Shown here piece after piece: positions 56,592-56,676 of a DNA stretch of 64,000 bases; positions within the stretch are counted from its first letter, which is position 1, and each line of letters opens with the position of its first letter. The notes beneath the pieces are model-generated. The model made no database searches. It had not been told where the DNA came from and saw only the letters and a program-made list of their open reading frames with translations. A program made the translations under genes and the position numbers. The stretch lies in sequence record LC739536.1; one strand, given 5' to 3'. This DNA is from Escherichia phage phiWec187.

Positions 56592-56676
56592 GATGGATTG
56601 GCCTAGTGGTTGGGCGACGGACTGTTAATCCGTGAACGAAAGTTCTAGCAAGGTTCAAATCCTTGATCCATCGCCA
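56592..56676 (+). tRNA. type-II-like tRNA with anticodon GTT (Asn?)
   Basis: acceptor GATGGAT/ATCCATC, perfect arm ACGGA-CTGTTAA-TCCGT, 15-nt variable arm GAAC-GAAA-GTTC, T-loop TTCAAAT, CCA. Confidence 0.6.

Follow-up and report, generated by a model that had tools for sequence, protein, structure and literature searches.

A phage tRNA-Asn(GUU) with a class II-like variable arm: structure, distribution and a possible part in the evasion of tRNA nucleases

The window analysed here is a stretch of 64,000 nucleotides from Escherichia phage phiWec187 (LC739536.1). ARAGORN detected tRNA genes in the order Lys(UUU)-Tyr(GUA)-Asn(GUU)-Thr(UGU) on its plus strand and called the third of them tRNA-Asn with the anticodon gtt. 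This gene is 100% identical to the annotated tRNA-Asn of phage phi92 (NC_023693.1, 52683-52767) and to many others. Its features and those of its neighbours are compiled in Table 1.

Table 1. Features of the tRNA-Asn(GUU) gene and of the neighbouring tRNA genes (positions are those of the window).
Feature	Position	Strand	Description and basis
tRNA-Asn(GUU) gene	56592-56676	+	85 nt with encoded CCA; ARAGORN, Rfam
Acceptor stem, 5' strand	56592-56598	+	GAUGGAU; pairs with 56666-56672; G1-C72, A2-U71; all 7 pairs covary in homologues
D arm	56601-56615	+	GCCU AGUGGUU GGGC; 3 Watson-Crick pairs and U13-G22 wobble, 7-nt loop
Anticodon arm	56617-56633	+	ACGGA-CUGUUAA-UCCGU; loop CUGUUAA at 56622-56628
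Anticodon	56624-56626	+	GUU, reads AAC/AAU; sequence, ARAGORN, Rfam
Variable arm	56634-56648	+	GAAC (56634-56637) pairs with GUUC (56642-56645); fold and compensatory changes in relatives
Variable arm, loop and tail	56638-56641; 56646-56648	+	GAAA tetraloop; three unpaired bases UAG
T arm	56649-56665	+	CAAGG-UUCAAAU-CCUUG; Rfam alignment, covariation
Acceptor stem, 3' strand	56666-56672	+	AUCCAUC; Rfam alignment
Discriminator	56673	+	G73; sequence; AsnRS determinant, LeuRS/TyrRS antideterminant according to PMC9976931
3' end	56674-56676	+	CCA, genomically encoded; sequence
tRNA-Lys(UUU)	56417-56492	+	bases 39-41 C-U-C, U-C-A in E. coli lysT
tRNA-Tyr(GUA)	56498-56584	+	7 nt upstream of tRNA-Asn; variable arm with 4 bp, tetraloop and 3 unpaired 3' bases
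tRNA-Thr(UGU)	56756-56830	+	base 39 G, U in E. coli thrU; same change in T5 tRNA-Thr

The complete gene matched Rfam RF00005 with 56.5 bits (E = 1.7e-9; curated threshold 29 bits) over model positions 1-71, and acceptor, D, anticodon and T arms were all recovered. In the resulting alignment GUU occupied the anticodon position with a posterior of ~1, and 12 bases of the variable region appeared as an insertion. The minimum-free-energy fold calculated with ViennaRNA (-29.5 kcal/mol, z = -2.57) showed the same cloverleaf together with the GAAC/GUUC hairpin. The acceptor stem has 7 bp and the T stem 5 bp (7/5 architecture), with U8 and G9 placed between the acceptor and the D arm. The covariance-model scoring, proposed as a check by a preceding sequence-only reading of this DNA, therefore confirmed with ARAGORN the perfect 5-bp anticodon stem, the loop CTGTTAA and the anticodon GTT which that reading had described; its long 15-nt variable arm with a GAAC-GAAA-GTTC stem-loop was likewise recovered by Rfam, by the minimum-free-energy fold and by covariation. 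The 3-bp D stem that it had counted among the class II features stands as far as the three Watson-Crick pairs are concerned, but the Rfam alignment also permits a 4-bp stem closed by the U13-G22 wobble, with a loop of 7 nt, and the D region of 18 nt is of class I-like size. ARAGORN, the Rfam model and the minimum-free-energy fold agreed with each other and revealed no alternative fold with a different anticodon. A mis-assigned fold, which the same reading had kept as an alternative, is ruled out by this agreement and by covariation in all helices among 31 distinct homologues.

These 31 homologues, all with a variable region of 15 nt, formed the set for the covariation analysis. Covariation was present in all five helices. 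Within the variable arm all 4 pairs were changed on both sides, and pairs 2, 3 and 4 were formed in 30/31, 31/31 and 29/31 homologues, with 3-5 pair types each. For the whole structure 95.2% of the cells were paired, compared with 64.3% in shuffled alignments, and 0/500 shuffles reached 95.2%. Because of these compensatory changes in its relatives, the helix of the variable arm is a helix under selection and not a chance pairing. The Levitt pair (15-48), checked by eye, showed covariation that was inconsistent across subgroups. Compensatory evolution of this kind would also be expected without any special function once the core of the tRNA depends on the arm.

Throughout the family the arm is a stem of 3-4 bp, capped in most cases by a GNRA loop, with about three unpaired bases on its 3' side. 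The 4 bp and 3 unpaired 3' bases of the window tRNA-Asn reproduce the geometry of the phages' own tRNA-Tyr, whereas the arms of tRNA-Ser from the same phages and from E. coli mostly have 4-7 bp (most of them 5-7) and 0-2 unpaired bases. G9, which is typical of class II tRNAs, is found in 44% of the long-arm Asn tRNAs vs 5% of the class I Asn tRNAs. The D region of the window tRNA-Asn showed a mean similarity of 0.43-0.47 to tRNA-Tyr, tRNA-Ser and tRNA-Leu, but of 0.60 to class I tRNA-Asn. An origin by duplication of the adjacent tRNA-Tyr (with changes GUA to GUU and A73 to G73) is unsupported, since its D and T arms resemble those of Tyr, Ser or Leu tRNAs no more than those of class I tRNAs; arm geometry is the only resemblance to tRNA-Tyr.

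In the textbook view, only the tRNAs for Leu, Ser, Sec and, in bacteria, Tyr have long variable arms. A tRNA-Asn with a class II-like arm is nevertheless present, under the plain annotation 'tRNA-Asn', in the genomes of hundreds of phages, among them relatives of T4, T5 and phi92. The searchable literature yielded no account of such a phage tRNA, although older or closed-access work may contain one. The window tRNA used as query matched 139 phage records, and its PSTCR5 relative matched 752. Long-arm Asn tRNAs were detected on at least 120 viral contigs and in four phage groups (Stephanstirmvirinae, Vequintavirinae, Demerecviridae and Straboviridae), and also in dense bacterial tRNA arrays of Micromonospora, Agromyces, Methyloprofundus, Flavobacteriales and others. 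A search of 5,426 complete E. coli genomes, covering chromosomes, prophages and plasmids, gave no match. Distant homologues were searched for with the canonical anticodon arm GGACUGUUAAUCC as a requirement, so that its conservation in those sets is partly imposed. In arrays with two Asn genes (L025, L044, L047) the class I copy has a divergent anticodon stem and the long-arm copy the canonical one. Analogous long-arm versions of other isotypes accompany the class II-like tRNA-Asn: the same mini-arm was seen on Cys, Trp, Thr, Ile, Lys, Glu and Met tRNAs in tRNA clusters of phages and mobile elements.

The phage tRNA-Asn contains every known determinant of E. coli AsnRS, namely G34, U35, U36 and G73. 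Transplantation of these four bases into E. coli tRNA-Lys is sufficient to transfer Asn identity, and G73 counts among the antideterminants against both LeuRS and TyrRS (PMC9976931). G73 is conserved in 106/109 unique long-arm Asn tRNAs. The pair U1-A72, a tRNA-Asn determinant for amidation by GatCAB (PMC9976931), occurs in 71 of these 109 sequences, in E. coli asnT and in most class I tRNA-Asn of the dataset. Comparison of the anticodon arm with that of E. coli asnT (L007:4550-4625) revealed identity at 16/17 positions, with base 27 as the sole difference. With respect to class membership, the tRNA has the long base-paired variable arm of class II in place of the short (4-5 nt) unpaired loop of class I; its anticodon GUU is not one of Leu, Ser, Tyr or Sec, and its discriminator is G73 instead of the A73 of tRNA-Tyr and tRNA-Leu. 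Of the tRNA-Ser identity set it shares G1-C72 and G73, but it has A2-U71 and an arm of non-serine geometry.

Base 73 also goes with the anticodon in long-arm tRNAs of other isotypes (Cys, Trp, Asp, Gly, Lys and Ile): U73 was found in 7/7 Cys and 3/3 Gly tRNAs, G73 in 5/5 Trp tRNAs, and the Lys and Ile tRNAs have A73. Charging of long-arm tRNAs by their cognate synthetases would lead one to expect this pattern. AsnRS is a class II synthetase, and such enzymes approach the tRNA from the variable-loop side; that AsnRS tolerates the extra arm is assumed from the evolutionary conservation of these tRNAs. From GUU and G73 we infer that the host AsnRS charges the phage tRNA, which is almost certain to carry Asn.

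The Lys-Tyr-Asn-Thr block of the window corresponds to the tRNA species that are cut by the PARIS nuclease AriB and by retron Eco7. Among the biologically relevant targets of AriB is E. coli tRNA-Asn(GUU), which the nuclease cuts at 40/41; AriB needs contacts beyond the anticodon arm and has been modelled to touch the D loop too (PMC12409363). The tRNA-Lys, tRNA-Thr and tRNA-Asn of phage T5 jointly neutralise PARIS (PMC12409363; PMC11464382), and its tRNA-Tyr acts against retron Eco7, of which tRNA-Tyr is the target (PMC11555353). In the phage tRNA-Asn the cut site 40/41 lies three bases before the start of the variable arm. The window tRNA-Lys and tRNA-Thr are substituted at bases 39-41 or 39, like the T5 escape tRNAs, while the window tRNA-Asn is unchanged there: its bases 39-43 (UCCGU), including U39, C40 and C41, are those of E. 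coli asnT, whereas the class I tRNA-Asn of T5 is mutated to GUUGA. In different T5-like phages, T5-type and long-arm Asn alleles occupy the same Cys-Asn-Asp locus. The window tRNA-Asn thus resembles an escape tRNA in being a phage-encoded isoacceptor of a host tRNA targeted by a nuclease, but it lacks a change at the cut site relative to the host tRNA. Phage Bas34's own tRNA-Asn (long-arm or class I) was insufficient against PARIS and was perhaps cleaved itself (Belukhina et al., PMC12409363).

Codon usage bears on the same set of tRNAs. Asn codons amount to 48.7 per 1000 in the ORFs of the window (AAT 31.2), and AAA, UAU, AAU and ACA are all enriched in this AT-rich phage, so that tRNAs for Asn, Lys, Thr(ACA) and Tyr(UAU) are in greater demand. 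Lys, Tyr, Asn and Thr tRNAs are therefore also the set that an AT-rich phage needs to read AAA, UAU, AAU and ACA, and their clustering is no proof of a role in defence.

The explanation to which we give an even chance is that the gene encodes a working phage Asn tRNA, charged by the host and reading AAC/AAU as Asn, whose class II-like arm evades tRNA nucleases. According to this proposal, a phi92-like E. coli phage would transcribe the tRNA-Asn within its tRNA cluster with the CCA already encoded, and the host AsnRS would charge it via the GUU anticodon and G73, so that AAC and AAU would be read as Asn. The hairpin in place of the 5-nt variable loop gives the molecule a class II-like body, unlike that of any cellular tRNA-Asn; in the proposed role, the arm would make it structurally unlike the host tRNA-Asn while the anticodon arm is kept host-like. 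Host nucleases that target tRNAs, with the PARIS effector AriB as the obvious candidate, would fail to bind or cut it, and AsnRS and the ribosome would still accept it. Since the Lys and Thr neighbours are changed at the AriB cut site while tRNA-Asn is host-like, the arm may be an alternative escape device in place of cut-site substitutions. A wider version of the proposal, which is tentative and in our estimation doubtful, regards short GNRA-capped arms as a modular 'armour' on class I tRNAs (Asn, Lys, Thr, Cys, Trp, Ile, Glu and Met) of phages and mobile arrays. Such an armour would alter the shape of the core and leave the anticodon arm and the discriminator untouched, and shape-reading nucleases such as AriB would be excluded by it, whereas the ribosome and the cognate synthetases would go on accepting the tRNA.

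A rival reading is that the long arm and G73 recruit SerRS and that serine is deliberately inserted at AAC/AAU, a mistranslation or recoding which is not supported by the sequence and which we consider highly improbable. Long arm and G73 are indeed the main determinants of SerRS, an enzyme that ignores the anticodon (PMC9976931; PMC5389517), and the versions of T4-like and T5-like phages also carry G1-C72 and G2-C71. The window tRNA, however, has A2-U71 where E. coli tRNA-Ser invariably shows G2-C71, and E. coli SerRS reads tertiary shape (PMC9976931). Its arm, like the 3-4 bp arms with three unpaired 3' bases of the family, is of the tyrosine and not the serine type, the complete AsnRS identity set is conserved, and U73 in long-arm Cys and Gly tRNAs and A73 in those for Lys and Ile show that base 73 goes with the anticodon rather than with SerRS. 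On these grounds, together with G73 acting against LeuRS and TyrRS, the earlier suggestion that the synthetase of a class II tRNA charges the molecule is not supported. Its corollary, a recoding of AAC/AAU, fared no better, since AAY codons behave as Asn codons: the catalytic Asn in the SNLCxE motif of the phage ribonucleotide reductase NrdA is encoded by AAY, and in an alignment of NrdA with the E. coli protein (37% identical) 13/34 window Asn residues face Asn and 4 face Ser, an Asn-to-Asn rate close to that predicted by overall identity. Alignment of T5 with TrudiGerster ORFs covered only about 600 residues. Moreover, the abundant host tRNA-Asn would compete for these codons and make true recoding impossible.

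A more serious competitor, although one we judge improbable on balance, is an entrenched historical accident, in which the arm arose on one or a few occasions, either through a hairpin inserted into the variable loop or because a class II ancestor switched its anticodon and discriminator, and is now kept only by the folding of the core in an ordinary codon-supply tRNA without advantage. The arm geometry shared with the adjacent tRNA-Tyr, the single change that separates GUA from GUU, the frequency of G9 and the demand created by AT-rich codon usage all fit such an origin, and the translation machinery of E. coli copes with hairpins engineered into the variable arm (PMC7590224). Against it stand the D and T arms of the window tRNA, which resemble Tyr, Ser or Leu tRNAs no more than class I tRNAs, and the bacterial tRNA-Asn pair U1-A72 in most family members; in addition, the mini-arm recurs on many isotypes in phage and mobile clusters and is absent from E. 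coli chromosomes, and this recurrence argues for a recurrent advantage. An advantage of a different kind would arise if the RNA were a decoy, as the earlier reading had also suggested, or an inhibitor that binds AriB or a tRNA-modifying toxin non-productively and spares the host tRNA-Asn pool, with decoding as a secondary role. The anticodon arm of the host is retained with the sequence recognised by AriB, U36-A-A-U-C-C41, as would be seen in a bait, and over-expressed viral tRNAs have been suggested as competitive inhibitors of AriB (Belukhina et al., PMC12409363). Nevertheless, the conservation of G73, the encoded CCA, the canonical T arm and the 7/5 architecture is expected of a translated tRNA and unnecessary for a bait, which makes a decoy quite unlikely as the main role, and decoding and bait roles are compatible with each other.

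Among known systems, class I bacterial tRNA-Asn (E. coli asnT/U/V/W) shares with the phage tRNA GUU, G73, the 7-bp acceptor, the 5-bp T stem and nearly the whole anticodon arm, and presumably also the synthetase and the codons. In contrast, E. coli asnT has the 5-nt loop AUGUC, U1-A72 and A9, where the phage tRNA has a 15-nt region with a 4-bp hairpin, G1-C72 and G9; D and T arm sequences of the two are unrelated, and in the searches made here the long-arm tRNA-Asn turned up in phages and mobile tRNA arrays alone. Class II tRNAs (Tyr, Ser, Leu) have a base-paired variable arm in common with the phage tRNA, the Tyr type in the same geometry, but they differ in their Leu, Ser or Tyr anticodons, in A73 (Tyr and Leu), in the mostly longer arm with G2-C71 of tRNA-Ser and in a D arm that in the phage tRNA is class I-sized. 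The T5 escape tRNAs (PMC11464382, PMC12409363) are likewise phage copies of nuclease-cut host tRNAs, with the same Cys-Asn-Asp locus in T5-like phages; the T5 tRNA-Asn, however, is a class I tRNA with a changed cut site, while in the long-arm tRNA the cut site is that of the host and the difference lies in the arm, and its resistance is putative.

Two further groups combine a long arm with anticodons of amino acids other than Leu, Ser and Tyr. Some of the allo-tRNAs (Mukai et al. 2017, PMC5389517) lie in phage tRNA clusters; their acceptor/T architecture is 8/4 or 9/3 and their identity that of Ser or Ala, in contrast to the 7/5 architecture of the phage tRNA. The nev-tRNAs are eukaryotic long-arm tRNAs of nematodes and, according to Hamashima et al. 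2012 (PMC3333845), use an alternative code for leucine. Allo-tRNAs and nev-tRNAs are both candidate mistranslators, whereas the identity elements of the phage tRNA match its anticodon.

If the arm were neutral, the tRNA would be a structural curiosity only. Otherwise it offers a handle on the features outside the anticodon arm by which PARIS-like tRNA-cutting systems tell their targets from other tRNAs, and on why phages carry their own tRNAs. It is also a putative natural case of AsnRS-type recognition that tolerates an extra arm, which may serve the engineering of orthogonal or tagged tRNAs. Should the 'armour' reading be true, the rule that long arms belong to Leu, Ser, Tyr and Sec tRNAs only would be overturned, and phages would possess a second tRNA-based route of counter-defence besides point mutations in the anticodon arm.

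The window derives from a phi92-like E. coli phage (Justusliebigvirus, Stephanstirmvirinae), and its tRNA region includes a tRNA-Asn called by ARAGORN (see table). Scoring with the Rfam covariance model supported a cloverleaf with GUU at 56.5 bits (threshold 29); the anticodon position had a posterior of ~1, and 12 bases of the variable region were aligned as an insertion. The thermodynamic fold returned the same cloverleaf with the GAAC/GUUC hairpin. As all three analyses agree, the sequence-only reading was correct in describing a long-arm tRNA, i.e. a class II-like base-paired variable arm on a body with a class I anticodon, here GUU. 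Its D stem, given there as 3 bp, does show three pairs, but in the Rfam alignment a U13-G22 wobble can extend it to 4 bp. The acceptor stem (GAUGGAU/AUCCAUC), with U8 and G9 after its first strand, is followed by the D stem (GCC(U)/(G)GGC, 7-nt loop), the anticodon arm (stem ACGGA/UCCGU, loop CUGUUAA), a 15-nt variable region (GAAC-GAAA-GUUC-UAG), the T arm (CAAGG-UUCAAAU-CCUUG), discriminator G73 and an encoded CCA.

Coordinates of the features discussed (window positions unless another source is named)
Feature	Position	Strand	Description
Class I ribonucleotide reductase	34511-36775	minus	Catalytic motif SNLCxE retained
tRNA region	55400-58600		98.6% identity to phi92
tRNA-like gene	55783-55864	+	Rfam tRNA 38.6 bits, no ARAGORN call; 7-bp acceptor stem, 7-nt linker in place of D arm, UCU (Arg) anticodon arm, extra hairpin CCGA-GUAA-UUGG at variable position, canonical T arm, G73, encoded CCA; TTGACA and TATAGT boxes upstream
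tRNA block	56417-56830		Lys(UUU)-Tyr(GUA)-Asn(GUU)-Thr(UGU)
tRNA-Lys	56417-56492		Base 39 changed relative to E. coli
tRNA-Asn	56592-56676	+	85 nt, anticodon gtt
tRNA-Asn/tRNA-Thr spacer	56681-56752	+	Folds as tRNA-like relic: 6-bp acceptor-like stem, UCUAGA/UCUAGA hairpin at anticodon-arm place, T-arm-like hairpin GUAGG-UAUCAAAU-CCUAC
tRNA-Thr	56756-56830		Acceptor stem and 5' anticodon-stem strand common to T5 tRNA-Thr
tRNA, CAU anticodon	58153-58231	+	79 nt, U1/C72 mismatch, oversized D loop
T5 (L008)	8953-9525	minus	Class I tRNA-Asn overlaps ORF T5.069 in T5-type phages
tRNA-Glu(UUC), KP13-26 (L002)	2305-2393		89 nt, arm AGUAG-GAAA-CUAC-CUU
tRNA-Glu(UUC), Tr1 (L003)	2770-2858		89 nt, arm AGAGG-GAAA-CCUC-CGU
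tRNA-Asn, Azoarcus sp. L1K30 chromosome scaffold (L048)	114-200		87 nt, variable region AGGTC-ATCCGT-AGGTC

phi92 and dozens of relatives carry the gene at 100% identity, and homologous genes in many phages are annotated as plain 'tRNA-Asn'. Diverged copies were found in Klebsiella phage KP13-26, Citrobacter phage Tr1, phAPEC8-like phages, Salmonella Seunavirus (Vequintavirinae), T5-like Demerecviridae (PSTCR5, PM135, AKFV33, TrudiGerster and others) and T4-like Straboviridae of Klebsiella, Enterobacter and Erwinia; a BLAST query with the window gene matched 139 phage records, and the PSTCR5 copy as query matched 752. Arm stems among the homologues include GAAC/GUUC, GAGA/UCUC, GAGG/CCUC, GUUC/GAAC, GAGU/ACUC and GUCA/UGAC. 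An alignment of 31 distinct homologues with a 15-nt variable region revealed changes on both sides at all four arm pairs; pairs 2-4 each comprised 3-5 pair types and were formed in 30, 31 and 29 of the 31 sequences, respectively. Pairing over the whole cloverleaf was 95.2% versus 64.3% in shuffles, a value reached by none of 500, and the covariation signal collapsed once the 3' partners were slid. The variable arm is selected rather than a product of chance.

A distant scan for sequences in which a long gap separates a canonical Asn anticodon arm from the T loop matched at least 120 viral contigs and 37 stretches in bacterial and archaeal assemblies, and ARAGORN confirmed many matches as long-arm Asn genes. 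Several bacterial matches sit within dense tRNA arrays (10-36 tRNAs per 8 kb), whose hosts include Micromonospora/Verrucosispora, Agromyces, Methyloprofundus, Flavobacteriales, Saprospiraceae and Bacilli. Enterobacteriaceae were absent from the scan matches listed, and none of 5,426 complete E. coli genomes, searched directly, gave a match. Among 109 unique long-arm tRNA-Asn sequences pooled from the matches listed, 106 have G73, 71 have U1-A72 and 35 have G1-C72. U1-A72, which E. coli asnT shares with most class I tRNA-Asn of the dataset, is the tRNA-Asn determinant for GatCAB amidation (PMC9976931). The variable hairpin has three or more base pairs (mostly 3-4) in 97 of the 109, usually with 3-4 unpaired bases on its 3' side, and the loop is GNRA in 60. 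The Azoarcus tRNA-Asn is otherwise canonical (U1-A72, class I D arm), and its variable region looks like a duplicated 5-nt variable loop.

Among the genes neighbouring long-arm tRNA-Asn in the viral contigs and arrays, mini-arms also occur in tRNAs for Cys, Trp, Thr, Ile, Lys, Glu, Met, Gly and Asp. Base 73 of these tRNAs agrees with the short-arm counterparts of the same isotype (U73 in 7/7 Cys and 3/3 Gly, G73 in 5/5 Trp and 2/2 Asp, A73 in Lys and Ile). This tracking of the anticodon is expected with cognate synthetases and unexpected with recruitment of SerRS, LeuRS or TyrRS. Long-arm Lys(UUU), Ile(UAU), Cys(GCA), Trp(CCA), Thr(UGU), Met, Glu, Gln, Gly, Asp and Pro genes adjoin long-arm Asn genes in bacterial MAG tRNA arrays (L015, L025) and in many of the viral contigs L050-L169; the 63 unique non-Asn examples, a sample biased to contigs with a long-arm Asn gene, mostly have 3-4-bp stems and GNRA loops. 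Relatives of the window phage also combine a long-arm body with a second class I anticodon, that of tRNA-Glu (A1-U72, A73), with compensatory changes between the KP13-26 and Tr1 arms.

E. coli Asn identity resides in the three anticodon bases and G73, and tRNA-Lys given these four bases acquires it (PMC9976931). All four are present and conserved in the window tRNA-Asn. G73 is also an antideterminant against LeuRS and TyrRS (PMC9976931). The tRNA-Ser of the same phages and of E. coli all start with G1-G2, and their arms mostly have 4-7 bp (most 5-7) with 0-2 unpaired 3' bases; the window tRNA-Asn has A2-U71 and an arm of 4 bp with three unpaired bases on the 3' side and none on the 5' side, the geometry of the phages' tRNA-Tyr. 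The Asn identity set, A2-U71 and the tRNA-Tyr-like arm thus oppose the earlier proposal that a synthetase of class II tRNAs charges this tRNA and AAC/AAU are recoded. Recoding is further opposed by the tracking of base 73 in other long-arm isotypes and by the window's reductase, in which, in a 37%-identical alignment to the E. coli enzyme, 13 of the 34 Asn residues fall opposite Asn and 4 opposite Ser; together with the retained motif, this indicates that AAY codons are meant as Asn. The evidence points to asparagine as the amino acid carried, and low-level serylation may occur.

Judged by sequence, the window tRNA has the identity elements of a tRNA-Asn and would work like one. It differs from class I tRNAs in lacking their short variable loop and from class II tRNAs in anticodon and base 73. 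Its 7/5 architecture, in contrast to the 8/4 or 9/3 of allo-tRNAs, shows that it is not an allo-tRNA, and it is unlike nev-tRNAs, described as eukaryotic and as reading an alternative code for leucine (PMC3333845). The searchable full texts, including key papers on phage tRNAs in counter-defence, contained no description of a long-arm phage tRNA-Asn; closed and older literature lay outside this scope.

There is no support for descent from the adjacent tRNA-Tyr, the D and T arms being no closer to Tyr, Ser or Leu tRNAs than to class I tRNAs; G9, however, is commoner in long-arm (44%) than in class I Asn tRNAs (5%). Without the 10-nt hairpin a loop of 5 nt, GCUAG, would remain, which makes simple hairpin insertion equally plausible.

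The fold of the tRNA-Asn/tRNA-Thr spacer is more stable than 200 of 200 shuffles (MFE z = -3.69), with no Rfam match; T5 has a 'putative tRNA-like RNA3' annotated directly downstream of its own tRNA-Asn. phAPEC8 carries a normal 75-nt tRNA-Arg(UCU) early in its cluster, and its homologue of the CAU tRNA is annotated 'tRNA-Pseudo-CAT'. Four GenBank records labelled 'Campylobacter phage' with C. jejuni as host (MG065639, MG065645, MG065656, MG065689) match the whole length of the region at 98.7% identity and are probably mislabelled or contaminant genomes. Parts of it match 1,192 phage records at 90-99%, mostly T4-like (Tequatrovirus and relatives), which suggests that individual tRNA genes are common to unrelated phage families.

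AriB, the Toprim nuclease of the defence system PARIS, cuts tRNA-Lys(UUU), Thr(UGU) and Asn(GUU) at bases 40/41 in the anticodon stem, E. coli tRNA-Asn(GUU) being a secondary but biologically relevant target, and the T5 tRNAs for Lys, Thr and Asn neutralise PARIS in combination (PMC12409363). AriB requires contacts beyond the anticodon arm, and in an AlphaFold 3 model the second AriB subunit lies on bases 16-17 of the D loop (PMC12409363). The window block combines these three isotypes with tRNA-Tyr, the target of retron Eco7 PtuAB. Bases 39-43 in E. coli, window and T5, respectively, are UCAAU, CUCCA and ACCAU for Lys, UCAGU, GCAAC and GCAUC for Thr, and UCCGU, UCCGU and GUUGA for Asn. Window Lys and Thr are thus both changed at base 39, where U to A abolishes tRNA-Lys cleavage by AriB, whereas the host cut site is intact in the window tRNA-Asn, whose context is like that of the T5 escape tRNAs but which lacks their defining cut-site substitution. 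T5 tRNA-Asn belongs to class I, its stem mutated and in part mismatched, and T5-type Asn genes occur in ~136 records at ≥90% identity. Different T5-like phages carry either this type or a long-arm gene at the same Cys-Asn-Asp locus. In arrays with two Asn genes, one copy is class I and diverges in its anticodon stem, and the other is long-arm and has the canonical stem. T5.069 is annotated elsewhere as T5orf172-domain or putative homing endonuclease; TrudiGerster-type phages have the long-arm gene at this locus without that ORF, and allele replacement driven by a homing endonuclease is a possibility.

The arm of the window tRNA-Asn begins three bases past the AriB cut site. It could offer an alternative escape from a shape-reading nuclease, the near-universal Asn anticodon arm being retained. 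A role as nuclease-escape device would fit these observations. Against it, the four tRNAs of the block serve codons enriched in the AT-rich phage (per 1000: AAA 54, ACA 26, UAU 30, AAU 31), the canonical anticodon arm in the distant sets is imposed by the scan pattern, and the own tRNA-Asn of Bas34, a BASEL phage, which could be class I or long-arm, did not protect (PMC12409363). The long-arm tRNA-Asn is widespread, under selection and uncommented in hundreds of annotated genomes, and any role other than normal decoding of Asn codons is a hypothesis that can be tested.
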